Source of the DNA: Opitutaceae bacterium
Lineage (GTDB): Bacteria; Verrucomicrobiota; Verrucomicrobiia; Opitutales; Opitutaceae
Assembly (NCBI GenBank): GCA_028280945.1
Contig: JANQKV010000030.1
Location: 100,275-164,274, forward strand
Length of the DNA: 64,000 nucleotides
Direction: 5' to 3'
The translations under genes were made by a program, and so were the position numbers. Positions 20,604 through 62,186 of the stretch are shown one piece after another. The notes under the pieces were generated by a model. That model was not told where the DNA came from and did no database searches. It saw only the letters and a list, made by a program, of their open reading frames with translations. Numbering within the stretch: position 1 is the stretch's first letter; each line of letters opens with the position of its first letter.

Positions 20604-20677
20604 GGCGACAGACGGAATAGAAGAGAGGTCGAGCCTCGCCATGGGGCGACGCGACTTGGCCGCCAAGACTTTGTTTC

Positions 20678-20743
20678 TGAGTAGTGTTGAGGTCTGGCGA
20701 CAGCGCGGCATGAGCCGACGTTACCAGCACCGTCTTGTTCGAA
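20678..20743 (-). repeat. attC-like site with degenerate R'
   Basis: - strand: TTCGAAC, 5 nt, GGTGCTGG ... CCAGACC, 6 nt, no GTT. The L boxes pair perfectly with one extra G; site begins 1 nt after the SnoaL stop. Confidence 0.65.
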
Positions 20744-20744
20744 T

Positions 20745-21104
20745 TCACTCTGTTGGAAGAGGTAGACCTTGTGCTCTAAGAAATGTGAGTTGATCCCAAT
20801 ATCCTCGTTGTAGCTTTATCTTTGATCCTTGGAACTCGAAGAAACCGCAGCCTCTTAGACCGTTCGGATCTTTCCACTCGAGAATTCCCCAGTTTTCGTC
20901 GGAAAAGACGCTCTCAACGATGCAAACCATCTTTGCTCGTGAAAATTCGTCTCTGAACATTTTCCTTATGTTCTCCTTTCCTGACACCGGTTCCAATGCC
21001 ACTTGGTGATTCACTGCGTCTTCGTGATACATTTCCGAAAGTGCATCGTGATCTGCTCGATTAAAAAGTTCTACCCAAGTCCGGATCAGTTCTTTGGGAT
21101 TCAT
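20745..21104 (-). CDS. SnoaL-like / NTF2-fold protein (gene cassette)
   Basis: 119 aa, W..LFN..D...L...Y.EDA pattern; visibly AT-richer than neighbours; attC-like sites on both sides. Confidence 0.75.
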   Translation of the reverse strand: MNPKELIRTWVELFNRADHDALSEMYHEDAVNHQVALEPVSGKENIRKMFRDEFSRAKMVCIVESVFSDENWGILEWKDPNGLRGCGFFEFQGSKIKLQRGYWDQLTFLRAQGLPLPTE

Positions 21105-21114
21105 ATCTATATTT

Positions 21115-21188
21115 TCGAAACGATTTAGCTCAGCCGCGAGCGCCGACGCGGAGCGGCAGTGCTTGTTGGCTCGGGCGATTGGTTAGGC
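21115..21188 (-). repeat. attC-like site
   Basis: - strand: GCCTAAC, CAATC, GCCCGAGC ... GCTGAGC, TAAATC, GTTTCGA; canonical R''-5-L''...L'-6-R' spacing. Confidence 0.75.
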
Positions 21189-21355
21189 ATTTTGGGGATT
21201 ACGAGTGTTATTCGGGATGCGAGGCCTATGGAATCACGTTTCTTAATTGGGACAGAGCTGGTGATTAACTGTCTGTTTATCGTAGTTCCATTTGTGGAGA
21301 TCAAATCCGTGAGAAGATAGCACTTCTTTATAACTGAGTGCTGACTGCTGGGCGC
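21125..21355 (-). pseudogene. 5'-truncated cassette ORF remnant reading into the attC site
   Basis: Stop-free AT-rich frame with no start codon, ending ...LVIPKMPNQSPEPTSTAAPRRRSRLS*. Confidence 0.45.
21334..21354. repeat. 7-nt-period short tandem array
   Basis: CTGAGTG CTGACTG CTGGGCG immediately after the menG stop. Confidence 0.5.
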
Positions 21356-24368: not shown

Positions 24369-24590
24369 CACTTCTTCGCTTCGCAATAATTCAGCCGCCT
24401 GTCGGCCACGTGGCCTTGCTGATCTTCTCTGGGCGCTCTGTGTCGATACCGCACTGTTCCTTCTCTTTGTTTCCTTCTGTAATCCAATCAGTGGAGTGTT
24501 GGTTGACTGCTGAGATCGGGCCCCTGACCGCTTTCCGTCTTCAGATTTCGCTTGGCGCGGCGTGAGGCGCGGCACCAACGTTTTGCTTCC

Positions 24591-25901
24591 ATGGCATCGT
24601 TCAAATCACTGCCCGGCTTCCGCGACTTCTATCCCGAGGATCTCATCCCTCGCACGCATCTGTTTCGCCAGTGGCGCCGGGCCGCGCATGCCTACGGTTT
24701 TCAGGAATACGATGCACCCGTCCTGGAATCGCTTGATCTCTACAAGGCCAAGTCGGGCGACGAGATTGAAGGCCAGCTTTTTAATTTCACCGACAAGGGC
24801 GACCGCGAGGTGGCGCTACGTCCGGAGATGACACCCACGGTCTGCCGCATGGTTGGCGCCAAGGCCAACGCCCTCAAGCGACCGATCAAGTGGTTCAGTA
24901 TTGCCGAGTTCTTTCGCTACGAGCGCATGCAGAAAGGCCGGGGACGCTGCTTCGCCCAGTTTAACGCCGACATCTTTGGCGAGGCGGGGCCGGAGGCGGA
25001 GATCGAATTGGTCGGCCTGCTGGTGCAATGCCTGCGTGGTCTTGGCCTGACGGCGGAGGACTTTTATGTGCGTCTCAGCGACCGCAACCTCTGGTTCTAC
25101 TATCTGGGAGCCCTCGGTTTGGACGAGATCCAGACCAAGGATATGCTGGCCGCGATCGACAAGTTCGAGCGATTGGGCGAGGACGCATTCAAGATCTACA
25201 CCGATGCCCACGGGGAGTTGAGCGATGAGGTGCGCACCAAGGTGCTCGCATTGCTCGCCATCAAGTCGCTGGCGGATCTCGAGGCGTTGGTGGATGGGCT
25301 TGCTTCGGAGGATCTCACGGCACGCCTGACGGATTGGCGGCAATTACTCGACGGACTGACAGCGATGGGGCTGGCCGACTTCGTCAGTGTGGACCTCGGC
25401 GTGGTGCGTGGCCTGGCCTACTATACGGGTTTCGTCTTCGAAGCCTTCGACCGAAAGGGTGACTTGCGGGCACTGGCCGGCGGCGGACGCTACAATGACC
25501 TGGTGGGCAAACTGGGTGGGCCGGATTTGCCCGCGGTGGGTTTTGCCATCGGCGACATGACCATGGAGTTGCTCCTGCGCCAACGTGGACTGTTGCCGGA
25601 GATTCTCAGTCAGCCCGACGTGTATGTTGTGGTGGGTGGCAGCGACGAGCGTTTGGCGGCCTTTGGTGATATCGCCGAGCTTCGCAGTTTTGGCTATCGG
25701 GTGGACTACCCGATGAAGGACTTGGGCTTCGGCAAACAGTTCAAGAATGCCACCGAGAGCGGGGCGAAGCTTGCGCTCATCTACGGAAGTGACGAGTTGG
25801 CCAAGGGTGTGGTTAAACTGCGCGACCTGGCCAAGCGAGAAGAAGTTGAGATCCCGCGCGATCAGGTCACTGCGGCTGTCGCGGATTTTCTCAGTGGATA
25901 G
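24591..25901 (+). CDS. hisS: histidine--tRNA ligase
   Basis: LRPEMTP, FRYERMQKGR, RGLAYYTG, GGGRY; C-terminal anticodon-binding domain. Confidence 0.95.
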   Translation: MASFKSLPGFRDFYPEDLIPRTHLFRQWRRAAHAYGFQEYDAPVLESLDLYKAKSGDEIEGQLFNFTDKGDREVALRPEMTPTVCRMVGAKANALKRPIKWFSIAEFFRYERMQKGRGRCFAQFNADIFGEAGPEAEIELVGLLVQCLRGLGLTAEDFYVRLSDRNLWFYYLGALGLDEIQTKDMLAAIDKFERLGEDAFKIYTDAHGELSDEVRTKVLALLAIKSLADLEALVDGLASEDLTARLTDWRQLLDGLTAMGLADFVSVDLGVVRGLAYYTGFVFEAFDRKGDLRALAGGGRYNDLVGKLGGPDLPAVGFAIGDMTMELLLRQRGLLPEILSQPDVYVVVGGSDERLAAFGDIAELRSFGYRVDYPMKDLGFGKQFKNATESGAKLALIYGSDELAKGVVKLRDLAKREEVEIPRDQVTAAVADFLSG

Positions 25902-25911
25902 GGCAGGGTGA

Positions 25912-26295
25912 ATGGAGCCTTTGCGCTACATCTGGTTGGCAGAACCACTTGCGGTTTGCCGGATGCCGTCCACCGCGGCGGTGCCGGGCTGGCTGCCTGC
26001 CGAGGGCTTCACGACCGTGAGCCGCACGGCGGACGAGCTTTCCATCGTCTGCTCCGAAGCCGCGGTTCCGGCCGGTGTGCAGGTCGAACCTGGTTGGCGG
26101 GCGCTGCGGGTGTTGGGTCCCTTGTCGTTTGATGCGGTTGGTGTGCTGAATCAAATCACGGGTCCCTTGGCGAGCGCCGGGATTCCCATCATCGCGATCG
26201 GCACATTCGACACCGACTACGTGTTGGTGCGGTCGTCCGATCAGATCCGCGCCGACGAAGCGTTGCAGGCGGTTGGATTGGTATCGTTGGGCTGA
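25912..26295 (+). CDS. tandem ACT-domain protein (CASTOR/ACT_7-like)
   Basis: SRTADELSIVC, GPLSFDAVGVL, GTFDTDYVLV. Confidence 0.85.
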   Translation: MEPLRYIWLAEPLAVCRMPSTAAVPGWLPAEGFTTVSRTADELSIVCSEAAVPAGVQVEPGWRALRVLGPLSFDAVGVLNQITGPLASAGIPIIAIGTFDTDYVLVRSSDQIRADEALQAVGLVSLG

Positions 26296-26347
26296 GGCAG
26301 CGGTTGATTCGTATTCTCTGAATACGATCTCGCGGAGTGCTTCGCAC

Positions 26348-26968
26348 TCACCGTTCGGTGGCTCCCTTACCAGCGATGATTTTACCACGAAACTTCTCTA
26401 TTCTGGCCCTTCGGGTGACAGATTTCTTCGCCGAGTTGAGGTTGATTACATAACTTCTCTGACGTCCCGGAGTGAGAAGCTGAAAGGCTTCATTTAACTC
26501 GGAATCCGCCTGCAGGGCTTCGGATAACTCATCCGGCAGTTCGAGCTGGTATTCTTCCTTTGGCGGTCTGAGCCCGGCGTCCGCATAGCCCATGGCTTCC
26601 TCCAAATAGGCTGCGATGACCGGTCTCAATTCCACGACCTGGCTGTTTTTCGTAAAACGAATCATGTCGGGGTGCCGGGTATTTGGACCCTGCTTTTCAA
26701 GGATGCCCGCCGGGTCCTTCATCAAGGCGGCGTCAAAGAAACTCAGACGAAAATCGGCCCGAAATGCTCCCATGATCGCGATATTGCGACCACCATGTGA
26801 GTAACACGGATGTCCCCATTTGACCGCCTCGGAAAGTTCTGCCCCCCGGCAGATTTCGCGCAGCTCGGCCAAGCCTTGGATCCATTGACGCGTAGAGCAA
26901 TCCTCGGTCGCGAATCGCTCACAGCGCCCACAACCCTTGGCGAAGTAATCCTCTATTTTAGTAATCAA
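26348..26968 (-). CDS. YdeI/OmpD-associated family protein
   Basis: LSEAVKWGHPCY, RLSFF, AFQLLTPGRQRSY, TRRARIEK; TTG start. Confidence 0.85.
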   Translation of the reverse strand: MITKIEDYFAKGCGRCERFATEDCSTRQWIQGLAELREICRGAELSEAVKWGHPCYSHGGRNIAIMGAFRADFRLSFFDAALMKDPAGILEKQGPNTRHPDMIRFTKNSQVVELRPVIAAYLEEAMGYADAGLRPPKEEYQLELPDELSEALQADSELNEAFQLLTPGRQRSYVINLNSAKKSVTRRARIEKFRGKIIAGKGATER

Positions 26969-27041
26969 CGCGAGAGAATGAGTTGCATACTCCTTGTCTG
27001 AGCCGGCCGGTTCGACTGAATTGCACGTCGCTTTGTTTTGC

Positions 27042-27464
27042 TCACGGGACTGACTTTTTCGCAGTTAGCCAACCGGTGAGGACGAACAACGGCGCTTGAA
27101 ACAGTAGATACAGACTGAAAATGAACCGCTGCCTCAGGCGAAGGTGCACCCAAGTTTCTCCCTCTTTTCGGGTGATCCAATACACGTAGATTCTGTCAGG
27201 CTCTCCATCGATCCCCATGATTTTCAGATGCAACTCTTGATCAGGTATGAGCTTGGTGAGCTTTGCTTCAACCGGCCGACCACTCATGATCCAAGCTCCT
27301 TCGAGCGAAGAACCTTCAGCAGGCGGGGGATTGACGAGTTTGATCGCTAGTCCGGGAAGTCCAGAACTCTTTCCTGGCGAGGCGCCTACAAAGTCCATGA
27401 GGTTGCGCCAGTAGTCTTCCAATGATCCGGTGACTCTCTTCTTTGCTCGGGCGTCAGCATACAT
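27042..27464 (-). CDS. cassette protein, possibly SRPBCC-like
   Basis: 140-aa ORF starting 20 nt after R' GTTGGCA; its own downstream attC not found; fold call weak. Confidence 0.5.
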   Translation of the reverse strand: MYADARAKKRVTGSLEDYWRNLMDFVGASPGKSSGLPGLAIKLVNPPPAEGSSLEGAWIMSGRPVEAKLTKLIPDQELHLKIMGIDGEPDRIYVYWITRKEGETWVHLRLRQRFIFSLYLLFQAPLFVLTGWLTAKKSVP

Positions 27465-27483
27465 AACGGTGAACTCCGGATTG

Positions 27484-27600
27484 TGCCAACGTTAGAGGCG
27501 AGGCACGGCGGCTAGCGACTGTGAAATCATGATCGGATTCACTGTGGGTGACGCGACAACGGCGGCTCTGGCTAATGTTGTCTCTAACGGTTGGTTAGCC
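27484..27600 (-). repeat. attC-like site
   Basis: GGCTAAC (contains the toxin stop), CAACC, GTTAGAGA ... CCTCGCC, TCTAAC, GTTGGCA; 117 nt. Confidence 0.75.
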
Positions 27601-27903
27601 TCTTTCACTCAGTTCCTTTCTGATCCACGCCGGGTAACGCCGCATATCCAAGATGGCGGCGACGCGGATAATCTCGTCAGTGACGTCATAGTAGATGGCA
27701 AAAGGGAAACGCCGGGATAGGGCCCGGTGAAATCCGAAGTGAATCGAATGGATCCCACCGTAGAGTCGAAGCGACTCCAGATCGGAAATCAGGCTATCGA
27801 TGAAATAGCGACCGATGCCGAGTTGTCTTTCGTCGTAAAAGGCACGACCCGCCTCCAAATCTCCGGCGGCCTCCTCAAGGACAATGACCTCCCGGCTCCG
27901 CAT
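27595..27903 (-). CDS. type II toxin, RelE/ParE family
   Basis: A..DL.....FY.....G.G..F...RALSRRFPFAIYY...V.AILDMRR.P; coupled to the antitoxin stop. Confidence 0.85.
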   Translation of the reverse strand: MRSREVIVLEEAAGDLEAGRAFYDERQLGIGRYFIDSLISDLESLRLYGGIHSIHFGFHRALSRRFPFAIYYDVTDEIIRVAAILDMRRYPAWIRKELSERG

Positions 27904-28106
27904 CAACGGAACTGGTCGCGAATTTGGTCGAGCGTGTAGAAATGGGCTTCGGAGGAATTCATCCGCTTACGCCGCTGCTCCAAGACATCACGATGCCAAC
28001 TGGGTGAAGCTGGCTCCTGTCCCTCGTGGCAGAGTGCGTCCCAAAGCTGTTCCATGGCGGAGAGGCGTTCACTGGTGGACATCTTCTTAATCTCTGCGGT
28101 GCTCAT
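27903..28106 (-). CDS. addiction-module antitoxin component
   Basis: MS..ERL..ME.LWD.L....SP.WH..VL..R pattern directly upstream of the ParE-like toxin. Confidence 0.85.
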   Translation of the reverse strand: MSTAEIKKMSTSERLSAMEQLWDALCHEGQEPASPSWHRDVLEQRRKRMNSSEAHFYTLDQIRDQFR

Positions 28107-28141
28107 GACAGCAAATGTGGGGAAATCCGACGGTTTCGCAA
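28107..28141 (-). promoter_or_regulatory. putative internal promoter of the TA cassette (leaderless)
   Basis: - strand: TTGCGA, 16 nt, CACATT, 7 nt, ATG. Confidence 0.45.
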
Positions 28142-28154
28142 GCGGGTGGTTTCT

Positions 28155-28271
28155 GGCTATAGTTAGAGGCGAGGCACGGTGGCCAGCGAATGTGAAATCA
28201 AGACCACATTCAGGACGAGTGACCCGACAAAGACGGCCCCGGCCGACTTTGTCTCTAGCGGTTGGTTAGAG
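28155..28271 (-). repeat. attC-like site with mutated R'
   Basis: CTCTAAC (contains the CdiI-like stop), CAACC, GCTAGAGA ... CCTCGCC, TCTAAC, TATAGCC; 117 nt; 38/42 identical to the 27484 site over the R'-proximal arm. Confidence 0.75.
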
Positions 28272-28541
28272 TCTTCTTTCTGCATGGTTAACTGCCTCCC
28301 GAAGCTCTCCATCAAAGAACTCCGTATCGTCATCAATCTGATCCCTGACCCTCTTCCTCGCTATCGGTAACAGATCGGCGACAGCGATATTCTGGCGGAG
28401 CAGAGTCGCTAACTCTTGGTTGTTCAGTTTGGTGATCGGCTTGGCCCAAGCCCGCTTACACCTCTCGATTAAGCCAGAATCGAAATCAGAATCCTCCCAG
28501 GGCCCTTCGATGTCAGCGACTGTGCGATGCGCGTGCTCCAT
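28266..28541 (-). CDS. CdiI-like immunity protein (orphan)
   Basis: T..DIEG.W...DFDS.L...C.....KP...L....L..LLRQ.I....LLP.A...D.EFFDGEL resembles CDI immunity proteins; recognised by pattern only. Confidence 0.6.
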   Translation of the reverse strand: MEHAHRTVADIEGPWEDSDFDSGLIERCKRAWAKPITKLNNQELATLLRQNIAVADLLPIARKRVRDQIDDDTEFFDGELREAVNHAERRL

Positions 28542-28544
28542 TAC

Positions 28545-28663
28545 TTCTAACGATTTAGATGAAACGCGGCTGCGTTTGAGTATAGGTTAAACGTGAATCC
28601 GCCGGAGTGGCGTCTGATGAAAAAGGTAACGGAGCAGCCGTTGTCTCGACTGGCTGGTTGGAC
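28545..28663 (-). repeat. attC-like site (second sequence type)
   Basis: GTCCAAC, CAGCC, AGTCGAGA, CAACGGCTGC ... GCAGCCGCG, TTTCATC, TAAATC, GTTAGAA; 119 nt; same TAAATCGTT end as the 21115 site. Confidence 0.7.
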
Positions 28664-29013
28664 TCTTCTTCCAGCTCTTTTTGACGCTCCTCCAAACGAT
28701 CCAAAAATTCATCTAGACTCACAGCATCCTTGTTCCACTTCAGCTCACCGGAAGACTCCACTGTAATGCTGTAGGACGGCTCTGAAGCGAAAACCCAAGA
28801 TAGAACTAGCACAGCGAAGGGGAACAAAAGTGCGGCATAACCGAGCCTGAGACTGTGCTTCGAAATCACTGGGATGCAGAGCAGGCAGGCGAGGAGACTG
28901 ACGAGACTCAACCAGTTCAAAGGTTCAAAACTCGCGAGAGGCTCGGACAACAGCTGGGCGATCGAACTCAATCCGAGCAAGAGATAAGGGATCACTAGCA
29001 GTCGTTTGTTCAT
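28555..29013 (-). CDS. cassette membrane protein, about 3 TM helices plus possible ExbD-like segment
   Basis: Hydrophobic N-half; YSITVESSGELKWNKDAVSLDEFLDRL; last ~36 codons lie inside the attC site. Confidence 0.5.
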   Translation of the reverse strand: MNKRLLVIPYLLLGLSSIAQLLSEPLASFEPLNWLSLVSLLACLLCIPVISKHSLRLGYAALLFPFAVLVLSWVFASEPSYSITVESSGELKWNKDAVSLDEFLDRLEERQKELEEESNQPVETTAAPLPFSSDATPADSRLTYTQTQPRFI

Positions 29014-29022
29014 TTAACGCAC

Positions 29023-29102
29023 GCCCAACGTTAGGGGTGAGGCACGGCGGCTAGCGACGGTGATATCATGTTCCTCGGGGGCGGATGCTGCAATGTTATC
29101 TC
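29023..29102 (-). repeat. partial attC-like site (R' and L' intact, R'' lost)
   Basis: 37/42 identical to the 27484 site; R' GTTGGGC; internal deletion, then AATGTTATCTC matching AATGTTGTCTC of the full site. Confidence 0.7.
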
Positions 29103-29260
29103 CGTTTCCTTCTGTAAAGATACGGAGACTGATGGCTCAGTGGCCTTCTGTGATCACCTCAGTGCACTCTGCTTAATAACTACCCTGGAGTAGTCTAAAT
29201 AGTGTTCTCCGCGTCTTTGCGCCTCCGCGTGAGTTGATTGCGGTGGCTGGGTTCCCAGTC

Positions 29261-29761
29261 TCAGAGGATCAATTCACGTTGGTGTTCGGTGATGTGATCG
29301 CGGGGAGGCGGTAAAGTCCCCGCGATGCCGTTGGGTTCAAATCTTTTGCTGGCGTAGAGGGCGATGGCGGGGGCGTTGTTGTCACCGACGTCGAGCAACA
29401 CCTTGGCGTGACCTTGTGACTCTGCCCAGGCCACGACTGCATCGACCAAGGCTCCCCCGACTCCGACGCCTCTCGCTTCCGGGGCCACCCACATGGAGAA
29501 GAGTCCGGCATGACCATCATAGGGCGCACTGCCGATCAGGCCCACGTCGTCACCGGCCTTGGTGGTGGCGAGAAAGGTGATCCGGTCATCACCGTTGAGG
29601 CGCTCACGCCAGTCGGTTTCGCCAAATGCCTCCTCCCGCGCCAATGTCGATCCAAACGCGTCGGGCGTGTCAGCCAACGCCCGCAGCCGGACGGGTCGAA
29701 CGCGCTCCCAGTCGTCGGGCTGCATACGAATGATGGAATACGAGAGGCTGGCGTGGGACAT
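29261..29761 (-). CDS. GNAT family N-acetyltransferase
   Basis: RLRALADTPDAF, SMWVAPEARGVGVG, N..AIALY...F. Confidence 0.9.
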   Translation of the reverse strand: MSHASLSYSIIRMQPDDWERVRPVRLRALADTPDAFGSTLAREEAFGETDWRERLNGDDRITFLATTKAGDDVGLIGSAPYDGHAGLFSMWVAPEARGVGVGGALVDAVVAWAESQGHAKVLLDVGDNNAPAIALYASKRFEPNGIAGTLPPPRDHITEHQRELIL

Positions 29762-29872
29762 GCAAGAAGGCGGTCGGTCGGATGAGAAAAGCGCGCGGAT
29801 TATTGCAAATACCAACGGCCGCGGTGGTGCGCTTGTCTACCAAAGGAACATCCCAAAATACGGGTGGAGCGA

Positions 29873-53261: not shown

Positions 53262-55571
53262 CTAAAGCCCGCGGAGCGAATAAAGGTAGGCGTAGAGGGT
53301 CATTTTGCCGCGCATGGTCTGACGGGGCGTAAACTCACCGTTGGTCCAGGAGTAGCGGCTGTTAAAGTGCGCCTCCTGGCGCGGCCAACCGTCTTTCCAA
53401 GCCGGATAACCACGCTCAGTAAACCACTGGGGCATCGACCCAATGTGCGTGGTGCCCCAAGGGTTCAGGTTGTTGTAAGGCGTGTGGCCGGGATGCAGTC
53501 CGGGCGAGCCGTCATTGCGACCAGAGGTGTAGCAATTGACGATGCAGCGTTCGCCGAGGCCCGTCATTTCGACGATGTTGCCGGGGTTGCGGCCCAATGC
53601 CCAGTCGGCTTCGAGAATGAGTGATTTGAGAAAGTACTCTTTCTCGGCCGGGTCGTCCGACAAGTGATGGGCCAGCACCACGAGATCCATGTTTTGGGGT
53701 GTCACCCAATACTGGTGGTTGGTCGATCGGCGAGACGGCCGCCAGTCCATGTTGTCGGCGTAGTCGGCCCGGGCCTGCCGGAAGAGGGAAGCCCTCATGT
53801 TCGCTTGGATCTCCGGGTGTCGGACCTCGCGCTTAGTCATCAAATACGCCGCCGTCGCCCACACTTGGTTCCAGCCCTGCAGTTCGAAAATGTTGGCGTC
53901 GGGGTCCTGCGCGACGCTGTCTCGCACCAGAGCATCCTCCCACTGGACATCGCCGGTCACGTTGTAGAGGTAGGCGGCGGCGAGCTGGCGGAAATCACGT
54001 CCGCGCATCCGGTCGTCGCCGATACCCTGGATATCGTCGAGCTGCAGGTTCTCCTGCTTCTGGGCGAAGCGATAGGCCGTGATCGCTTCGCGGCGATAAT
54101 GGTCGGACATCTCACGGTTGCCGTTTACGCGAAAGGCTTCGGCGACCATGGCGCAGTTTGCCGCGTTGGCCCATGCGGCCATGGTGGTGGCGCCGGCTTG
54201 GAACATGATGGTTTTTTCCTGCGAGGGGTTGGTCAGGCCATGGGAATACGCCTCGCCGTCACGCAGGCGGAGGAACATGTCGATTTCGTTCAGCGCCTCG
54301 TCGATCAGGTCCGGGATGCCGTTGCCACTTTCGCGGATGCCCAGGTCATCTTCGTCGAGCGAGCCGCCGCTGATCAGGAACGGCAGCAGCTGCGCATAGA
54401 TGTTGGAAACGTGGGCGAGATGGCGGTCCCAATCGGCTGCATCAGAGTGACCGCCGTAGGCTTCGGGGTTTGTCGGGTTACCGGCCGGCCGGTTGGCCCA
54501 AAACATCGATTCCTCGGCGGGTTTAAAGTGATTTTCATCCCAAGTGTCGCCAGGGTGGTCATCCCACTTGGGGTGGAAGGGGTGAAGTTCGGTCAAATAC
54601 ACGGTGAAGCCGGCCGGGTCTTTTTCCGGCATGAACTGCGGCTGCCGGGGGACAGGGCGAATGTCCGTGATCGGTTCGCCCACGCGCATGTAGTAGTAAC
54701 CGCGCAGTTTGGTCTGGTAGGGGGCATAATACGCCTCATCGCTGATCTCGAATTCGACGGATCGTCCCACCCCTTCAACAACCAGACGGTAGCTGCCGGG
54801 CGTATTGAAGCCGGTGAAATCCACGTTCCAAACCGGGGATCCTGTCAGGTTCCAGTCGTTGAATTCCTTTTGACTGTCCTGCCAGAACGTGACTTCGCCG
54901 ACCTCGTGACGGGAGCCATCCTTGGTGTTGAGGAGCCAGACCCGATTGCCTTCGAAATCGCGGTAGTCGCGGGGGCCGCCGTCCCCCAACCACCGATAAA
55001 GATCGGCCGATTTGACCGGTGACTGCGTCGGATAGCCGATCAGGTTGACTTTCACCGCTTCACTGGAGTGGGCGAAAACATCAAAGGTGAAGTCGGTGGA
55101 CTCGGCTTCGATCGCGAGGTCTTCGGCCATCACCAGCTCGTAATTCGCACCTTGTTGAAGCGGGGAGGGCAGCTCAAGGAACAGCCAGTGGTCCAGTTTG
55201 AAATTCCAGCTGTGATCGGTGTTGTTTGCCTTGGCCCGGCGAAAGATGGCCACCGGGGATTTTCCGCTGCTGCCGTAGGCGGCATCATCCTCCGAACGGA
55301 TGGTCCACCTTTTCACGTCCGTGGCCTTGGCGGGATCCAGCTCTTCGCCAAACGCCACAATCTTGTCATCCCCCTCAGCGAAGGCATGGCCCTTGTAGGC
55401 ACTCTCGCCTTTGCCGTCGTCGCGAAACCATGTTTCCCCGTCCTTCAGGTAGAGCTCGAGATAACCTTGGTCCACCGGCTTCAGGTAGATCAGTTTGCTC
55501 GCGAACAAACTGGAACTGATCACAAGTGCAGCCAGAAAGCCGCACCAGAAACGGGGCGAGAGGTAGGTCAT
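53262..55571 (-). CDS. GH9-like glycoside hydrolase with N-terminal Ig-like domain
   Basis: Signal peptide; VKVNLIGY, GGHSDAADWD (DAGD-like), PDLIDEA..E, C-terminal NGEFT. Confidence 0.7.
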   Translation of the reverse strand: MTYLSPRFWCGFLAALVISSSLFASKLIYLKPVDQGYLELYLKDGETWFRDDGKGESAYKGHAFAEGDDKIVAFGEELDPAKATDVKRWTIRSEDDAAYGSSGKSPVAIFRRAKANNTDHSWNFKLDHWLFLELPSPLQQGANYELVMAEDLAIEAESTDFTFDVFAHSSEAVKVNLIGYPTQSPVKSADLYRWLGDGGPRDYRDFEGNRVWLLNTKDGSRHEVGEVTFWQDSQKEFNDWNLTGSPVWNVDFTGFNTPGSYRLVVEGVGRSVEFEISDEAYYAPYQTKLRGYYYMRVGEPITDIRPVPRQPQFMPEKDPAGFTVYLTELHPFHPKWDDHPGDTWDENHFKPAEESMFWANRPAGNPTNPEAYGGHSDAADWDRHLAHVSNIYAQLLPFLISGGSLDEDDLGIRESGNGIPDLIDEALNEIDMFLRLRDGEAYSHGLTNPSQEKTIMFQAGATTMAAWANAANCAMVAEAFRVNGNREMSDHYRREAITAYRFAQKQENLQLDDIQGIGDDRMRGRDFRQLAAAYLYNVTGDVQWEDALVRDSVAQDPDANIFELQGWNQVWATAAYLMTKREVRHPEIQANMRASLFRQARADYADNMDWRPSRRSTNHQYWVTPQNMDLVVLAHHLSDDPAEKEYFLKSLILEADWALGRNPGNIVEMTGLGERCIVNCYTSGRNDGSPGLHPGHTPYNNLNPWGTTHIGSMPQWFTERGYPAWKDGWPRQEAHFNSRYSWTNGEFTPRQTMRGKMTLYAYLYSLRGL

Positions 55572-55620
55572 GGTAGGAGCACTTCAACCTCATGCGCCCA
55601 AGTCTCGCAATCGCACGGCT

Positions 55621-55707
55621 AGACAACGTTAAGGGGAGACCGACCCGGCCGGGTAGGGTTTGCGTCGAACCGTGTCTTTGCGTGCCATCCTCCAACCGCC
55701 GTTGCCA
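55621..55707 (-). repeat. possible solitary attC-like hairpin between divergent genes
   Basis: TGGCAAC, 5 nt, TTGGAGGA ... TCTCCCC, TTAAC, GTTGTCT; right end resembles the array sites. Confidence 0.3.
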
Positions 55708-56561
55708 TGAACCTTCGTAGAAATCTAGCGTTAGTGCTATCAACCACCCTTTGCATCATGTCGTCCGCCCAAGGATTGTATATTCCCCAACCCAGTCCCA
55801 AGGCTGCGATCGAACAGACCATTGGTGTTTGTAGTGTTCGGTTGGAATACAGCCGGCCCAGTGCACGAGACCGGGAGATTTTTGGTGAATTGGTGCCTCA
55901 CGGCGAGGTTTGGCGGGCGGGTGCCAATGCGGCGACCGTCTTGGCCACGGATCAGGACATTCAATTCGGCTGCCGTCTGCTACCCGCCGGCAGGTATGCC
56001 CTGATGATGATCCCGACTGCCGAAAGTTGGATCATTATTGTGAACTCAGAATGGGAGCAATGGGGGGCCTTTAATTACGATCCATCCGAGGATGTCTTCC
56101 GTTTCACCGTTGATCCGATCGAGAGCGGGCATACGGAGATGTGCACCTATGCGTTTGAACGAGTGGACAAGACGAGCGCGCTACTGATTTTGGAGTGGAG
56201 CACGGTCCGCATCGAAATGCCCATCGCGGTCGATACCCGGGCGCAGACGATTGCGAATATCGAGTCGATGACCGGCAAGATGCGTTCCGAATGGTATACC
56301 TTCTCCAATGCCGCCAACTACTACTTCTATGAATTAAACCGGGTCGAAGAAGCGATCGAGTATGTGAATGTTGCGATCGCCCTGGATGCGCCCAATCCGT
56401 CACCCTGGATGCTCAAATCACAAATACTTGCATCGTTGGAACGATACGAGGAAGCCATCGCGTTGGCGGAAGAGGCGATAGAGATCAGCAAAAGAACCGA
56501 CCATGCGTTCGAGATCGGAGAGAATGAACGTCAGATCAAAAAATGGAGGGGAAAGCTATGA
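55707..56561 (+). CDS. DUF2911-like secreted protein with C-terminal TPR
   Basis: PQPSP, YSRPSAR.REIFGELVP.G.VWRAGAN.AT; TPR-like tail. Confidence 0.85.
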   Translation: MNLRRNLALVLSTTLCIMSSAQGLYIPQPSPKAAIEQTIGVCSVRLEYSRPSARDREIFGELVPHGEVWRAGANAATVLATDQDIQFGCRLLPAGRYALMMIPTAESWIIIVNSEWEQWGAFNYDPSEDVFRFTVDPIESGHTEMCTYAFERVDKTSALLILEWSTVRIEMPIAVDTRAQTIANIESMTGKMRSEWYTFSNAANYYFYELNRVEEAIEYVNVAIALDAPNPSPWMLKSQILASLERYEEAIALAEEAIEISKRTDHAFEIGENERQIKKWRGKL

Positions 56562-56649
56562 TTCTCAGGAACGAGTCGTGGCAGAACGCAGTCGTGATAG
56601 ATCTGTTTTCACTGAGATTCACGGACAGGCGTTTGATTATGGTGTTGTG

Positions 56650-56691
56650 CCCCACCAGCTCTTGGCCGGCGGCAACCGGCGGCTGGTGGGG
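56650..56691. terminator. strong hairpin between convergent genes (possible terminator)
   Basis: CCCCACCAGC/GCTGGTGGGG 10-bp stem plus inner GCCGG/CCGGC; no clear U-tract. Confidence 0.45.
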
Positions 56692-56774
56692 ATTCGGAAA
56701 GCGGACAGTTAATGCTGTTTCTTCGGTGATTTGCGGATCCATGTCCATCGTCCGCAGCGCGGTGTCTTTTATCG

Positions 56775-57422
56775 TTATTCCAGCGGTTGCTGTTTGGTTC
56801 GTCTACGCCTCTTGAAAACGACTGCCGCCAGCGAAAAACAACCGAACAATAACGCATACTGGCTTGGCTCCGGGACTGGGCTAGCGGAGACCGAGTAAAG
56901 ATAATCAACCGTAGCTAGCCCTACTGATGACCATGAAGCACCTTGATTCAAGGATACGGCTGAGGCGTTACCAATCGTCCAAGCCCCTGTCTCGCTGTCA
57001 TCGCTGGCATAGTCCCATAGGCTTCTCCCGTTTCCCGTTTCAGTTCCAGTGGTAAGCCAATAGGTCGTATTTGCATCCAGGAACAGACTTCCAGATGGAG
57101 TATAGACGGAGAGCCCTCCTGTAGGGTTCAGGTCACCAGTCAACGAGCCGTTGGTGACCTCGATACCTGGCAGTCCCCCGTCGTCACTGTAGATGCTAAA
57201 AAACAGGGGAGAGGAGGTGTCGGTTGCGCCATCAATACTCAAAGTTACCGAAGTCAGAAAGTAACTTTGATTGTCAGTCGTAAATGACGACGCACGGTAG
57301 TTGCCGTTCGAGATCCCACCAAAGGCGGTGGCAGTGTTGGCGAGCGAGCTAACCTGGACTTGGGCTAGGCCGGGAATGGCCAAAGCCGAGAGAAGGATAA
57401 TATATCTCAGAGATTTCATCAT
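56775..57422 (-). CDS. PEP-CTERM sorting-domain surface protein (choice-of-anchor R-like)
   Basis: Signal peptide; SFTT...LTSVTL, IYSD..GLPG; VPEPS, TM helix, KRRRR; AT-richer than the window average. Confidence 0.85.
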   Translation of the reverse strand: MMKSLRYIILLSALAIPGLAQVQVSSLANTATAFGGISNGNYRASSFTTDNQSYFLTSVTLSIDGATDTSSPLFFSIYSDDGGLPGIEVTNGSLTGDLNPTGGLSVYTPSGSLFLDANTTYWLTTGTETGNGRSLWDYASDDSETGAWTIGNASAVSLNQGASWSSVGLATVDYLYSVSASPVPEPSQYALLFGCFSLAAVVFKRRRRTKQQPLE

Positions 57423-57708
57423 GATTATGGTTGGTTTGGGTGAACGTGAGCGTCGTTTGGACGACGCCATATTTTCATTGTCCGCGGTCGGACTCACAAG
57501 CGTCGATACCCTGAACGGCGGATGCCGTATGGTGTATTAGAGACAGTGCTCAAATACCGGTTCGAACATAACCTGCCCTGTGATCACCAATTCATGGTCG
57601 GTGGATTCGGTAGAAGGCTTGAGGTGGCACGTCACCGCTTCCCCATATCCAAGGGTCGTTCAATCGAAATAGGATTATTGGAGGGCTTTTCTAACTGGAC
57701 AACTTTAA

Positions 57709-57804
57709 ATGATATCTCCACCAACCGCTCACGTGTTTCCCTCCATCATTATTGCCGCGATTATCATCATTGCCCGCCGACCCGGGCAGGTAAATTCGGC
57801 GTAG
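57709..57804 (+). CDS. putative Ile-rich attenuator leader peptide (below the ORF-track size cutoff)
   Basis: MISPPTAHVFPSIIIAAIIIIARRPGQVNSA*; 7 Ile codons within 9 consecutive codons; in-frame GTG at 57733 is an alternative start. Confidence 0.8.
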   Translation: MISPPTAHVFPSIIIAAIIIIARRPGQVNSA

Positions 57805-57868
57805 CGAGACGACGACCTCCGCCAAATTTCCTGAAACCCCGGGCTCAACTGCCGGGGTTTTTTGTTTT
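57781..57868 (+). promoter_or_regulatory. transcription attenuator (antiterminator/terminator) upstream of cimA
   Basis: Antiterminator 57781-57804 pairs with 57817-57843 (~21 bp); mutually exclusive terminator AAACCCCGG/CCGGGGTTT followed by a T-run (57834-57868). Confidence 0.8.
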
Positions 57869-57907
57869 GGCCCTCCTTCTCATCTTCCCAACCTGACCCT
57901 TCCGCAC

Positions 57908-59482
57908 ATGAACAACACCCACGTCAAAATCTACGACACGACCCTCCGCGACGGCACGCAGGGCGAAGGCATCAGCTTTTCCGTCACCGACAAGCTGCTC
58001 ATCGCCCAGCGTTTGGACGAGTTTGGAGTGGACTACATCGAAGGCGGCTTTCCGGGATCCAATCCGCGGGACATTACTTTTTTTAACGAGGCCAAGGAAC
58101 TGAAGCTGAAGCACGCCAAGCTGGCGGCATTTGGGTCCACGCGGCGGGCGAACATCAAGGCGGAGGATGATCTCCAGCTAAAGACCCTGCTCGACAGTGG
58201 CATGCCCGTAATGACCCTCGTCGGCAAAACCTGGGATCTGCATGTCACTGAGATTCTGCGCACCAACCTTGACGAGAATCTGGCCATGATCGAAGACTCC
58301 GTGCGCTACCTGGTTGCGCAGGGACGTGAAGTCATCTACGACGCGGAGCATTTTTTCGACGGCTACCGGGCGGATCCGGATTACGCGTTCAAAACCCTGG
58401 CGGCGGCCCAGCGGGGCGGGGCGTCCAACCTCACACTGTGCGACACCAACGGTGGTTCGTTGGTGGACGACTTCAAAGACATCGTTGCGAAGGCCGTGGC
58501 GGAGTTTGGATCGGAAAACGTGGGGGTGCATTGCCACAACGACGCCGGACTGGGGGTGGCCCTGACTTTGGCGGGAGTCGCAGCGGGCGGTTCGCTGGTG
58601 CAGGGCACGGCCAACGGTTATGGCGAACGCACGGGCAATGCGAATCTCATTACCATCCTGCCCAGCCTCTTCCTCAAGATGGGGCGCACGGCCAACTGCG
58701 CCCGGAATCTGGGTGAACTACGCGAGCTTTCCCTCTACTTTGATGAGCTGGCGAATCTGCGACCCGATACCAAGGCGCCTTATGTTGGCAGTTCCGCATT
58801 CGCGCACAAGGGAGGTCTCCACGCCAACGCCGCGCAGAAAGTGAAGTCCTCCTACGAGCACATCGATCCGGCCGATGTGGGAAATCACACGCGGGTATTG
58901 GTGTCGGATATGGCGGGAAGGTCATCCGTTGCCATGAAGGCCCGGGAGTTGGGATTGGAGATCGATGAAAAAGGGGACGACATCAAGGCGCTTATCGAGC
59001 GGCTCAAGGACCTGGAGTTTCAGGGTTACGAGTTCGAAGCCGCCGACGCTTCCCTCAAGATGCTCATCGCGGACCAACTGGGGCGCCGAACCAAGTTTTT
59101 CGAGGCGGAGAATTATCGGGTTATGGTGGAGCGGCACGGAAAGGAAGTTTTCGCGGAGGCCACTGTGAAAGTGAAAGTGAACGACCGGTCCTACCACACG
59201 GTGGCGGAGTGCACGGGCCCCGTGGGTGCGCTCGACAAAGCGTTGCGTCTCGCTTTGGAAGACGCCTACCCGGAACTCAAGGACATGGCGTTGCGTGACT
59301 ACAAAGTCCGTATCCTGCAACGACATGGCGATGGCGCCAACAGCCGCACCCGGGTATTGATCGAATCCGGTGCCGATAAGGAAATCTGGGGCACGGTGGG
59401 CGTGGACGACAACATCATCGAGGCCTCGTGGGAGGCTTTGTTGGACGCGGTCAATTATCGTCTCCTGCAACTCTCGTCGTAG
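57908..59482 (+). CDS. cimA: citramalate synthase (DRE-TIM, LeuA-related)
   Basis: YDTTLRDGTQGEG, IEGGFPGSNPRD, YDAEHFFDG, HCHND, AHKGGLH; the Ile leader supports CimA over LeuA. Confidence 0.85.
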   Translation: MNNTHVKIYDTTLRDGTQGEGISFSVTDKLLIAQRLDEFGVDYIEGGFPGSNPRDITFFNEAKELKLKHAKLAAFGSTRRANIKAEDDLQLKTLLDSGMPVMTLVGKTWDLHVTEILRTNLDENLAMIEDSVRYLVAQGREVIYDAEHFFDGYRADPDYAFKTLAAAQRGGASNLTLCDTNGGSLVDDFKDIVAKAVAEFGSENVGVHCHNDAGLGVALTLAGVAAGGSLVQGTANGYGERTGNANLITILPSLFLKMGRTANCARNLGELRELSLYFDELANLRPDTKAPYVGSSAFAHKGGLHANAAQKVKSSYEHIDPADVGNHTRVLVSDMAGRSSVAMKARELGLEIDEKGDDIKALIERLKDLEFQGYEFEAADASLKMLIADQLGRRTKFFEAENYRVMVERHGKEVFAEATVKVKVNDRSYHTVAECTGPVGALDKALRLALEDAYPELKDMALRDYKVRILQRHGDGANSRTRVLIESGADKEIWGTVGVDDNIIEASWEALLDAVNYRLLQLSS

Positions 59483-59581
59483 GAACTCAGTTTCGTCCAA
59501 ATTCTGTCTAGGTTTTGGGTCACAAAAATTTATACCGATTACGCTGGCACGTCGCGTAGCGGTCCGTGAGCCTTTTGCCTC

Positions 59582-60730
59582 GTGCCGTTTAAACTTCCCA
59601 ACGCTCAAATCAATTGGACCAACAGTGCCTTCCTTATCGGGATCGCACTTCTGAGTATAACCGTCGTGCCGTATCATATCTGGACGAACGGTATCGATGC
59701 ATTCCAGATCGCACTGTTCTTTGTGTTCTTCATAGCCACGGGGTTGAGCATCACGCTCGGCTACCACCGCTTGTTTGCGCACAAGGCCTTCAAGGCGAAG
59801 TGGCCGGTGCGATTGGCCACTCTGTTGTTCGGGGCCGCCACCTTTGAAAACTGTGTTCTCGCGTGGACTTCAGACCACCGGCGCCATCACAAGCACGTTG
59901 ACCACGACGACGATCCCTACGACATCAGCCAAGGTTTCTGGTATGCCCACATCGGCTGGATCCTGTTCAAGATCACGCCGGAACCGCCATGGGACAACGT
60001 GAAGGATCTGCGCCAGGATGCCTTGGTGATGTTCCAGTCCAAGTTTTACATCCCGATCGCCGTGGCCATGGGTTTTGGACTGCCGACCCTGCTGGGCTGG
60101 TTGTGGGCCGGTCCTTCCGGCGCACTCACGGCGTTTTTGGTCGCAGGCGTGCTGCGAATCTTCGCGGTGCAGCAGATGACGTTTTTCATCAATTCGCTCT
60201 GCCACACGATCGGCGAACGTCCCTACTCAAGCCGTTGCAGCGCCCGCGACAGCTGGTTCATGGCCATCTTCACTTTCGGCGAGGGCTATCACAATTACCA
60301 TCACGAGTTTCAACACGACTACCGCAACGGTGTGAAATGGTGGCAGTGGGACCCCACCAAGTGGTCCATCTGGACCCTCGAAAAACTCGGCCTGGTCAGC
60401 GATCTGCGCCGGGTGCAGGAGGAAAAGATCATCGCCGCCCAACTCATGGAGGCCCGGCGCCGGGTGCAGGATACCTTGGCCGACAAGTCCCTGAACCTGA
60501 CCGCTGCCCGCCAGGAGCTGATTCGGGCTGCCGGCGAACGCCTGGATGAATTGGCGGAACGCTGGGCGGTTTTGAAGGAGCACTATCGACACCGCGCGGA
60601 AGAGCTCAAGGAGAGCGCGGCCGAAATCAAGGACCAGAAGCTGCAGGAGGCCCGCGATGCCATCGAGGAGATGCGTCGTGAAGTGCGGGCGGCTTTGCAA
60701 CTCCTCGACGGACTGCCCGCGTCGGCCTAG
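59582..60730 (+). CDS. delta-9-type fatty acyl desaturase with helical C-terminal extension
   Basis: His boxes HRLFAH, HRRHH, HNYHH; GEGYHN; WDPTKW. Confidence 0.92.
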   Translation: MPFKLPNAQINWTNSAFLIGIALLSITVVPYHIWTNGIDAFQIALFFVFFIATGLSITLGYHRLFAHKAFKAKWPVRLATLLFGAATFENCVLAWTSDHRRHHKHVDHDDDPYDISQGFWYAHIGWILFKITPEPPWDNVKDLRQDALVMFQSKFYIPIAVAMGFGLPTLLGWLWAGPSGALTAFLVAGVLRIFAVQQMTFFINSLCHTIGERPYSSRCSARDSWFMAIFTFGEGYHNYHHEFQHDYRNGVKWWQWDPTKWSIWTLEKLGLVSDLRRVQEEKIIAAQLMEARRRVQDTLADKSLNLTAARQELIRAAGERLDELAERWAVLKEHYRHRAEELKESAAEIKDQKLQEARDAIEEMRREVRAALQLLDGLPASA

Positions 60731-60755
60731 CCGGGGACCGGAGCGGTGCGGCTGT

Positions 60756-62186
60756 TCACAACAGCGGCGCGAGCAAACGGCTAAGATCTTCCGCCAGCAG
60801 GCTGGTCCAGCGGCGCGGGATCTTGCCGGCGATGTAGGTGCGGCTGTGGCGCACGAGCTCACCGGCCCAGGATCGCATTGCGGCGACTTCCGCCGGAGTA
60901 TACACTGCGATACCAATCTCGAAATTCACGAAAAGACTGCGCAGATCAAAATTGGCGGAGCCAAACACCGCATGTTTGTCGTCCACGATGACGACCTTGG
61001 CGTGGAGCATGGCAGCTTGAAAGAGCAACACACGTGCTCCCGCGAGCTGCAGATCGCGCAGATACTGACGACGGGCGTAGTCGGTGACGGCGTGGTTGGA
61101 TTTTTCCGGCACGATGAGGGTCACATCGACTCCCGCCCGGGCTTTTACCAACAGGGATCGTTGCAGGACTTCATCGGGGATAAAATAGGGTGTGATGATC
61201 CAGACGCTCTGTTCGGCTTCCTGCACAAAGGAGACCAAGCCCTCGTAGAGCGGGTCGCCGTGCACATCGGGCCCACTCGCGATCACCTGTAAATCGCAGG
61301 TGCCTTGCGACGCCGGGCAGACGGGAGAGGCTTCCTCCCGCAGTTCCTGGATGGATTTGTCAGTGGCGAAATTCCAGTCGGCGAAAAAGACCTCATCAAT
61401 CAAGCCGGCTGCGGGACCTTCGATCACCGCGCCAAAGTCGGTCCAACGCTGATCCCAGGCGGTTGGTCCCATGTATTCGCGTGCCATGTTGCGCCCTCCC
61501 ACAATGGCGGTTTCGTGGTCGAAGACTGCGATTTTGCGGTGATTGCGCAGATTGGCCGAATGACGCGTGGAGAGGGGAGCAACCGGCATGAATCGCCGCA
61601 CGGTCCCGCCGGCCCGGCGAATCGGCTCACAGAAGCGTCCCGCTGCCACAAAGCTGCCCAGTCCATCCAACAACAGTCTCACCGTCACGCCTTCCCGAGC
61701 CCGTTTGGCCAATTCCTCCACCAACGCCTTCCCGGTTTCGTCGCGAGCCAGAATGAACGTGGTGATGTGGATCGTGCGCCGGGCCGCCCGAATCCGGGTG
61801 ACAAATTCATTGAAAGAGGCCTCGCCGGTGCGCAGCACTTTCAGGCGATTGCCCCCGATGGGAGGACCGCTGCCGTTGGCCATGATCGTGCGGTTGGACG
61901 GCAGGTGCATGACCTGCTCACGGGCCGCGGGAGCCCCCGGCAGTCGCAGCTGCATCTTGTCCTTGCGCGCGACCAGTTTTTTGATCTTACGCCCGCCGAA
62001 CAGCAGGTAAAGTGGCACTCCCAGGTAGGGGATGAGCACGATGCCCAGCAGCCACGCCATGGTGTTCCCGGGTTGCCGTTTTTCGCTCATCAGCCGGGCG
62101 ATCGCGAACACCGCCAGTAGAAAGCCGCCCACGGTCAAAAGATGTGACCAGATGCTCGTCTCAACCACATGAGTCACCTCCTCCAT
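60756..62186 (-). CDS. cls: cardiolipin synthase-like phospholipase D
   Basis: Two N-terminal TM helices; HRKIAVFD and HAKVVIVD HKD motifs; GSAN.D.RS; start uncertain (62186 or 62243). Confidence 0.88.
   Translation of the reverse strand: MEEVTHVVETSIWSHLLTVGGFLLAVFAIARLMSEKRQPGNTMAWLLGIVLIPYLGVPLYLLFGGRKIKKLVARKDKMQLRLPGAPAAREQVMHLPSNRTIMANGSGPPIGGNRLKVLRTGEASFNEFVTRIRAARRTIHITTFILARDETGKALVEELAKRAREGVTVRLLLDGLGSFVAAGRFCEPIRRAGGTVRRFMPVAPLSTRHSANLRNHRKIAVFDHETAIVGGRNMAREYMGPTAWDQRWTDFGAVIEGPAAGLIDEVFFADWNFATDKSIQELREEASPVCPASQGTCDLQVIASGPDVHGDPLYEGLVSFVQEAEQSVWIITPYFIPDEVLQRSLLVKARAGVDVTLIVPEKSNHAVTDYARRQYLRDLQLAGARVLLFQAAMLHAKVVIVDDKHAVFGSANFDLRSLFVNFEIGIAVYTPAEVAAMRSWAGELVRHSRTYIAGKIPRRWTSLLAEDLSRLLAPLL

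Follow-up and report, generated by a model that had tools for sequence, protein, structure and literature searches.

A probable integron cassette array fragment on the downstream side of hisS in a member of the Opitutaceae

What separates the small, co-oriented genes found downstream of hisS in the chromosome of an Opitutaceae bacterium (Verrucomicrobiota), and by which route did they come to lie there? The question was raised by a preliminary description of a stretch of 64,000 nucleotides (GenBank assembly GCA_028280945.1, contig JANQKV010000030.1, positions 100,275 to 164,274; the whole stretch is called the window, and positions are counted from its first letter), in which four attC-like sites had been noticed between such genes. 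From the analysis reported here, the region of approximately 26994–29117 is very probably a cluster of attC sites lacking an integron integrase (CALIN), representing a piece of the cassette array of an integron. The four sites were recovered (27482–27602, 28153–28273, 28543–28665 and 29021 to approximately 29073), with all the genes on the minus strand.

The CALIN was defined together with the IntegronFinder program (Cury et al. 2016, PMC4889954). It consists of at least two clustered attC sites with no integron integrase within 4 kb; here, three full sites lie within 1.2 kb and no integrase is found on the contig (C38). A complete integron, with intI and attI beside the array, is not found in this genome (G000, 5.44 Mb), but it is present in congeners, as discussed below.

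Boxes, fold and cassette ends of the sites

Four independent lines of evidence, namely the boxes, the fold, the complementarity of the cassette ends and the adjacency to integrases, identify the sites as attC. The upstream end of the array is that of the high coordinates, and the bottom strand of the attC sites corresponds to the plus strand, opposite to the genes. Read on the bottom strand, each site opens with a variable tetramer and AAC and closes with GTT and a further variable tetramer; the coding-strand equivalent is RYYYAAC (R'', gene-proximal) ... GTTRRRY (R', distal), and in more than 50 sites no columns are better conserved than AAC and GTT. In the window, the coding-strand boxes are GGCTAAC, CTCTAAC and GTCCAAC for R'', and GTTGGCA, (C)TATAGCC, GTTAGAA and GTTGGGC for R'. 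The sites are 65, 67, 77–78, 104 or 121–125 nt long, with conserved ends and a variable or deleted centre, in agreement with the variable length (about 57–141 nt) and the conserved ends of attC sites in general.

For the short class of sites (65 nt), the predicted fold comprises the AAC/GTT R box, a 7 × 7-nt internal loop, a 13-pair stem whose 3' arm carries conserved unpaired bases, and a loop of 4–6 nt. Across 30 short-class sequences, 94% of the cells of the 16 consensus pairs are paired, and 35 cells are compensatory, compared with 10.9 in shuffles (0 of 500 shuffles reached 35). Four stem positions swap C-G with G-C, or A-T with C-G, in 7–11 sequences each, and pairing drops to 29–42% in slid controls. 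For the long class, RNAalifold predicts a long-range stem that is homologous to the short-class stem, 92% paired and with four covarying pairs, and this predicted stem is the better reading of the long-class fold. An initial structure, in which GTTAGAG was paired with CTCTAAC leaving a 5-nt bulge, was discarded because, on the evidence of the short class, the unpaired spacer is formed by these heptamers, one on each side. In the modelled fold, the bulged G and T may be the equivalents of the extrahelical bases that govern strand selection. The preliminary description had named, as outcomes that would speak against an integron origin, sites failing attC models and sites not forming bottom-strand hairpins with extrahelical bases. 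Neither was observed, given the boxes, the variable length and the conserved ends on the one hand, and the predicted hairpin with its 3'-arm bulges and compensatory changes on the other.

The third line of evidence derives from the manner in which cassettes are exchanged. If the units move by recombination at the G|TT of R', a cassette is expected to have four variable bases at its 5' end that pair with R'' of its own attC, one site downstream; pairing with R'' of the site where the start now sits is not required. When all pairs of adjacent sites were taken into account, the R' at the cassette start and the R'' of its own attC were perfectly complementary (4/4) in 20 of 41 cases, and at three or more positions in 34 of 41. 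Perfect complementarity was found in 1 of 47 cases within the same site, in 2 of 39 in the reverse direction and in 5.7% of random pairs, and none of 50,000 permutations reached the observed value (p<2e-5). With a first, incomplete list of sites the value was 10 of 29, and most failures vanished after the addition of the short sites that had been missed. In the window, the junction GGCTATA/GTTAGCC (R' of site 2, R'' of site 1) matches at 4/4 variable positions, and the junctions TTCTAAC/GTTAGAG and GCCCAAC/GTTGGAC (for the latter, R' of site 4 and R'' of site 3) at 3/4 each. The mutually complementary cassette ends initially noticed at this locus are thus borne out and, genome-wide, are far above chance. 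As read from the sequences, such complementarity is the signature left by excision and insertion at G|TT.

The sites of the array belong to a family that extends through the genome. A covariance model (R1) was obtained from 15 full copies in the own genome, including sites 1–3 of the window. BLAST and iterated nhmmer searches of G000 yielded about two dozen copies with a spacing of approximately 0.4–1.5 kb on contigs C47, C19, C33, C65 and C10, and the nhmmer search also recovered 28547–28667 as a divergent member. R1 also detects the 65-nt class in these arrays, its alignments lacking the centre of the site, and a dedicated nhmmer search gave 35 short sites, for a total in the whole genome of more than 50 sites on at least eight contigs. 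The clusters are found at C47:340–11779 and 55538–61601, C19:135329–138117, C33:88458–91725, C65:805–4016, C10:50649–53081, C67:36618–37208, and on C73.

Within the window, a repeat search returned a 114-nt repeat (27491–27604 and 28162–28275, 79% identity) and a 49-nt repeat in three copies, including 29025–29073 (84–90% identity). The 37–38 of 42 nt that three sites were initially said to share were found to be exact, with 38/42 between sites 1 and 2 and 37/42 between sites 1 and 4 (27491–27532 and equivalents). Site 3 had been taken for a different type, shared with a site at 21115. That it is a divergent subtype was confirmed; its likeness to the site at 21113–21190 is limited to 20 nt at 80% identity, and its true sibling is C47:6145–6267 (80% over 119 nt).

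Integrases of the genus and of this genome

The fourth line of evidence comes from other genomes of the same genus, in which integron integrases were called with the TIGR02249 model (cut-off, 265 bits). Integrases over the cut-off (347–408 bits) are present in 10 of 16 genomes, and that of G009 was confirmed by hmmscan of the translated open reading frame (ORF; 361 bits). In five of them (G001, G007, G008, G009 and G016) the distance between R1 sites and intI is no more than a few kb; the sites are on the strand that encodes intI, and the cassettes are divergent from it. This is the canonical geometry (see Table 1 for G008 and G009), and it sustains the interpretation of the hisS locus as an integron-derived array. 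At one integrase locus (L012), a 131-aa ORF, transcribed away from the integrase gene, is located between this gene and the nearest R1 site.

These findings are also the ones that bear on a quite different explanation, by which the repeats would not be recombination sites but an intergenic repeat peculiar to the genus, for instance a repetitive extragenic palindrome (REP) or bacterial interspersed mosaic element (BIME), a miniature inverted-repeat transposable element (MITE) or a terminator hairpin. The repeats are indeed intergenic, palindromic and abundant, two of them overlap terminator-like patterns on the plus strand, and no Rfam family matches them. However, the direction-specific complementarity between a cassette start and its own R'' would be unexpected for REPs, MITEs or terminators, the arrays are strictly co-oriented with the genes and, in the five congeners, begin beside an integron integrase, and no terminal inverted repeats with target duplications are present. 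An intergenic repeat of this kind is, therefore, highly improbable.

In the genome under study, the absence of intI from the window, already stated in the preliminary description, extends to the entire assembly, as judged from TIGR02249 and tblastn searches. The best TIGR02249 score is 79 bits, on other contigs and far from the arrays; with tblastn no IntI fragment was detected in any contig, the best matches being 32%-identical Xer-like proteins, also far from the arrays; and contig C38 returned no match with either method. It has to be considered that the gene may reside in the unassembled or unbinned part of the genome, in which case the array would be a detached piece of a complete integron, with cassettes that could be mobilized from within the same genome. 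The assembly is made of 75 contigs with 96.45% completeness, arrays run to contig ends (C19:138117 of 138205, C47:340 and C65:805), and in the congeners that have intI the gene is usually 1–2 kb from a contig end. Against this possibility, which is considered less likely than not, neither a match nor a fragment of IntI is found in any contig by hidden Markov model or tblastn, a single-copy sequence normally assembles, and two congeners (G012 and G014) likewise contain sites with no intI found. With either outcome the array stays a CALIN by definition, because no intI is present within 27 kb.

A side observation on recombinases concerns the congener G001, in which a 335-aa protein is encoded in at least six near-identical copies (e.g. 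C1:26947–27477 and 1004228–1004758) and matches the N-terminal half of the integron-integrase model with 111 bits. Some copies are a few hundred bases to approximately 1 kb from attC sites, and the protein may be a multicopy recombinase or insertion sequence (IS) tied to the arrays.

Cassettes, ends and mobility of the array

All sizeable ORFs within 26994–29117 are on the minus strand, and they form four co-oriented cassettes parted by three full attC sites of 121–123 nt (Table 1).

Table 1. Positions of the features of the window and of two integrase-adjacent arrays of congeners (boxes of the sites are given for the bottom strand).
Feature	Positions	Strand	Size	Remarks
Lone attC, R1 family	21113–21190	+	78 nt	R1 26.4 bits, E 5e-5 in window
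hisS	24552–25901			TIGR00442, 327 bits
YdeI/DUF1801-like gene	26348–26968	-		downstream neighbour of the array
attC remnant, short class	26994–27019	+	26 nt	L''-spacer-R'' end TTGTCTGAG-CCGGCCG-GTTCGAC; downstream end of the array
Cassette 4 ORF	27042–27464	-	140 aa	no family match; cassette start 27489, top strand G|TTGGCA
attC site 1, long class	27482–27602	+	121 nt	R1 112 bits, E 1e-28 (R1 seed); R' TGCCAAC (27484–27490), R'' GTTAGCC (27594–27600); attC of the toxin-antitoxin cassette
RelE/ParE-family toxin	27595–27906	-	103 aa	4-nt overlap with the antitoxin gene
Antitoxin	27903–28106	-	67 aa	PF09720 Unstab_antitox, 48.5 bits (cut-off 23.3)
attC site 2, long class	28153–28273	+	121 nt	R1 107.6 bits (R1 seed); R' GGCTATA (28155–28161), R'' GTTAGAG (28265–28271); attC of the immunity cassette
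CdiI-like immunity protein	28266–28541	-	91 aa	PF18616 CdiI_3, 33.2 bits (cut-off 28); cassette 28161–28550
attC site 3, divergent long subtype	28543–28665	+	123 nt	R1 71.7 bits (R1 seed); R' TTCTAAC (28545–28551), R'' GTTGGAC (28657–28663); attC of the membrane-protein cassette
Predicted membrane protein	28555–29013	-	152 aa	from the ORF list; cassette 28551–29028
attC site 4	29021–29117	+		R'-L' half 29023–29073 intact (R' GCCCAAC), distal half decayed; upstream end of the array
GNAT gene	29261–29815			neighbour at the upstream side of the array
G009, attC sites	3075486–3090731			
G009, intI	3091876–3092796			
G008, intI	1988118–1989041			
G008, attC sites	from 1990702			

Each cassette contains one ORF or one toxin-antitoxin pair, preceded by a 5' leader of 9–54 nt and followed by its own attC. 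The ATG is 25 nt past the R' crossover point for the 140-aa ORF and 9 nt past it for the immunity gene, and the toxin and antitoxin genes form a single cassette (27490–28160). The 103-aa toxin has 271 homologues, of which those at 60–74% identity are labelled by NCBI as 'type II toxin-antitoxin system RelE/ParE family toxin'. This protein and those of 140 and 152 aa have no sequence match in Pfam, NCBIfam or PDB, the 152-aa protein giving sub-threshold Pfam matches only. By Pfam, the contents are typical of chromosomal cassettes.

Two stop codons fall within R'' boxes, as initially noticed, with the TAA of the toxin gene (27595–27597) inside GGCTAAC and that of the immunity gene (28266–28268) inside CTCTAAC. 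The R'' of site 3 (GTCCAAC) is without a stop codon, and the membrane-protein ORF reads through its own attC (28555–28665). From the coordinates, the last approximately 37 residues of the 152-aa protein are, therefore, encoded by attC. A sigma-70-like match was not found on the coding strand of the array, although this is a weak test.

Each unit is a promoterless cassette that begins with the TTRRRY of a core site, goes on with an ORF or toxin-antitoxin pair, and finishes with its own attC. Folding of the site, cleavage at G|TT and cassette exchange are steps of established integron biology; applied to this locus, the strand opposite to the genes would fold into the R box, the internal loop and the stem with its bulged bases, and IntI would cut the hairpin between G and TT of R', allowing cassettes to be excised or inserted singly. 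Expression would occur via read-through or cassette-internal promoters. The array is likely to be static at present, and could be mobilized only in trans by an IntI from elsewhere, because no integrase was found nearby or in the assembly, and the attC at either end is incomplete. Its persistence is probably aided by the RelE/ParE toxin-antitoxin cassette.

The two ends are informative on the origin of the array. At the upstream end, the first 49 nt of site 4 are 90% identical to site 1, and the whole site scores 8.4 bits with R1. At the downstream end, the start of the YdeI/DUF1801-like gene abuts the 26-nt remnant, whose proximal half is absent and which is not picked up by R1. Its motif TTGTCTGAG-N7-GTT occurs 23 times in the genome versus 0.36 expected, and the other 22 copies are all in complete 65-nt sites. 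A full degenerate attC at 26963–27019 was also considered and rejected, as R1 finds none there and the convincing part is the 26-nt distal end only. Both ends of the array look like breakpoints inside attC sites, and for this reason the array is read as having been cut, or separated by rearrangement, from a longer one.

The alternative is that the array was built in place, with IntI inserting single cassettes at a secondary (GNT) chromosomal site, a route that is listed among the origins of CALINs (Cury 2016, PMC4889954). A lone site with its cassette between core genes at 20745–21190, described below, resembles the product of such an insertion. Serial insertion at a secondary site, however, predicts chromosomal sequence upstream of the first cassette, where the half attC of 29023–29073 is found instead; it is disfavoured because such a half site would not remain there, and a truncated attC is present at the other end of the array as well. 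This origin is, on the whole, unlikely.

With respect to variability, no R1 site was found within ±10 kb of hisS in the 80 nearest hisS loci of other Opitutaceae species (up to 85% HisRS identity), and in the closest one (L014) synteny stops after the ACT-domain gene. The toxin-antitoxin pair of the window also occurs on metagenome contigs, with 72–74% nucleotide identity confined to 28107–27595. In L100/L101 and L105–L108 the pair is bounded by R1 sites and has neighbours that differ from those in the window, and in L094–L099 a homologous pair is found without flanking R1 sites. An array content invariant across strains, the last of the contrary outcomes initially named, was not observed, since the other-species hisS loci lack the sites and the toxin-antitoxin cassette is found elsewhere with other neighbours. 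In the related metagenomic array of L105/L106, an IS110-family transposase (DEDD_Tnp_IS110 and Transposase_20; 975–2027) lies between R1 sites. It is reminiscent of the IS1111 group, the members of which target attC.

A number of points weigh against the identification of the array as a CALIN. R1 was trained on the genome's own repeats, making the scores of the window sites partly circular: because sites 1–3 are all seeds, their scores show membership of the genome's family and not attC identity, for which the independent evidence is the adjacency to integrases in congeners and the cassette-end test. In the long class, the long-range stem has a competitor in a local 3' hairpin, and the minimum-free-energy folds of single long sites are branched and modest (z, −1.9 to −2.8), with no one clean hairpin. 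The upstream site 4 is half decayed, and R'' of the downstream remnant pairs at just 1/4 positions with the start of the last cassette, and the remnant is therefore probably truncated or foreign to this cassette. Recombination at the sites is read from sequence, and with an assembly in 75 contigs and 96% complete an unassembled intI is possible.

As for the surroundings, the GC content is 0.52–0.56 over 26200–29400 versus approximately 0.60 in the flanks, which consist of core or ordinary genes, including the ACT-domain gene in addition to those of Table 1.

Known systems and scattered sites

Once placed among known systems, the array is an ordinary CALIN of a well-known type of element, and it leaves the integron mechanism unchanged. 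Like the CALINs surveyed by Cury et al. (PMC4889954), it is small (3–5 sites, a size shared by 83% of CALINs), its cassettes carry no antibiotic-resistance genes, and no intI pseudogene is nearby. Unlike them, it was called with a home-made model instead of that of IntegronFinder for attC, it has a truncated site at either end, and it belongs to a genome in which more than 50 sites on at least eight contigs are accompanied by no assembled integrase.

The comparison with the Vibrio cholerae superintegron, with its V. cholerae repeat (VCR) sites of about 120 nt, shows a similarly homogeneous, species- or genus-specific attC family with long sites of approximately 121 nt, cassettes for toxin-antitoxin pairs, acetyltransferases, SnoaL/NTF2-like and small unknown proteins, and some ORFs that enter attC. 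The differences are in the host, an Opitutaceae bacterium (Verrucomicrobiota), in the bimodal 65/121-nt family with common ends, and in the arrays being scattered in the own genome, where the integrase platform is absent. With the attC of aadA7 (the 59-base element) the sites share the RYYYAAC inverse core, the GTTRRRY core and the G|TT crossover, here deduced from cassette-end complementarity, as well as the folded bottom strand with R box, unpaired spacer, L stem and bulges on the double-prime arm, which are predicted for the present sites. Sequence similarity is, in contrast, limited to the core boxes, and the internal loop of the short class is of 7 × 7 nt.

It had been initially remarked that integrons of this phylum are little studied. 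The remark is a fair one, and no paper on Opitutaceae integrons was found in the literature searched, yet Verrucomicrobia were already recorded in genome surveys among the phyla with integrons (PMC4889954). What the locus adds are well-documented integron cassettes in the Opitutaceae, in a phylum where surveys list integrons and the literature searched gives no description of them, together with a genus-specific attC model and a cassette-end test that detects past site-specific recombination from sequence only.

A broader picture may be considered, in which the genus keeps a chromosomal integron with bimodal 65/121-nt attC sites and the genome under study has lost the integrase, with more than 50 cassettes left scattered over at least eight clusters, some of them single between core genes. 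This scenario is tentative, its chances being somewhat short of even. If true, it would offer a case from nature of an integron that is breaking up within the chromosome, its fragments being kept where they are by toxin-antitoxin cassettes.

Within the window, the lone 78-nt attC (Table 1) is located directly upstream of a SnoaL-like gene (20745–21104, minus strand; SnoaL_2, 45.5 bits). Site and gene, the latter AT-richer, are wedged between the core genes erpA/iscA and ubiE/menG, and resemble one cassette at a secondary site. A further attC that had been proposed at 20674–20745, on the downstream side of this gene, was rejected as noise, its 9.6 bits being no better than matches inside clpX.

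Elsewhere in the genome, half sites were noticed at C19:135329–135370 and C47:11728–11779 (also at C33:245349 and C10:50767), in which the R'-L' part of the long class is followed by divergence. Two of them have the same continuation, TTGAACGTAAAGTCCTGC.TGGGTCGGGA; a third subtype of attC, or else a shared breakpoint or insertion, may be represented here.

Finally, the genome contains 12 copies of the motif GTT(C)TCTn(C/T)GTTTCCTTCTGTAA, some of them a few tens of nucleotides upstream of plus-strand genes. Copies are found in the window at 24461–24482, upstream of hisS, and at 29096–29117, where the motif overlaps the decayed half of site 4, and on other contigs at C2:68918, C2:42879, C57:148507 and C41:39364. 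The motif may be a promoter or leader element.

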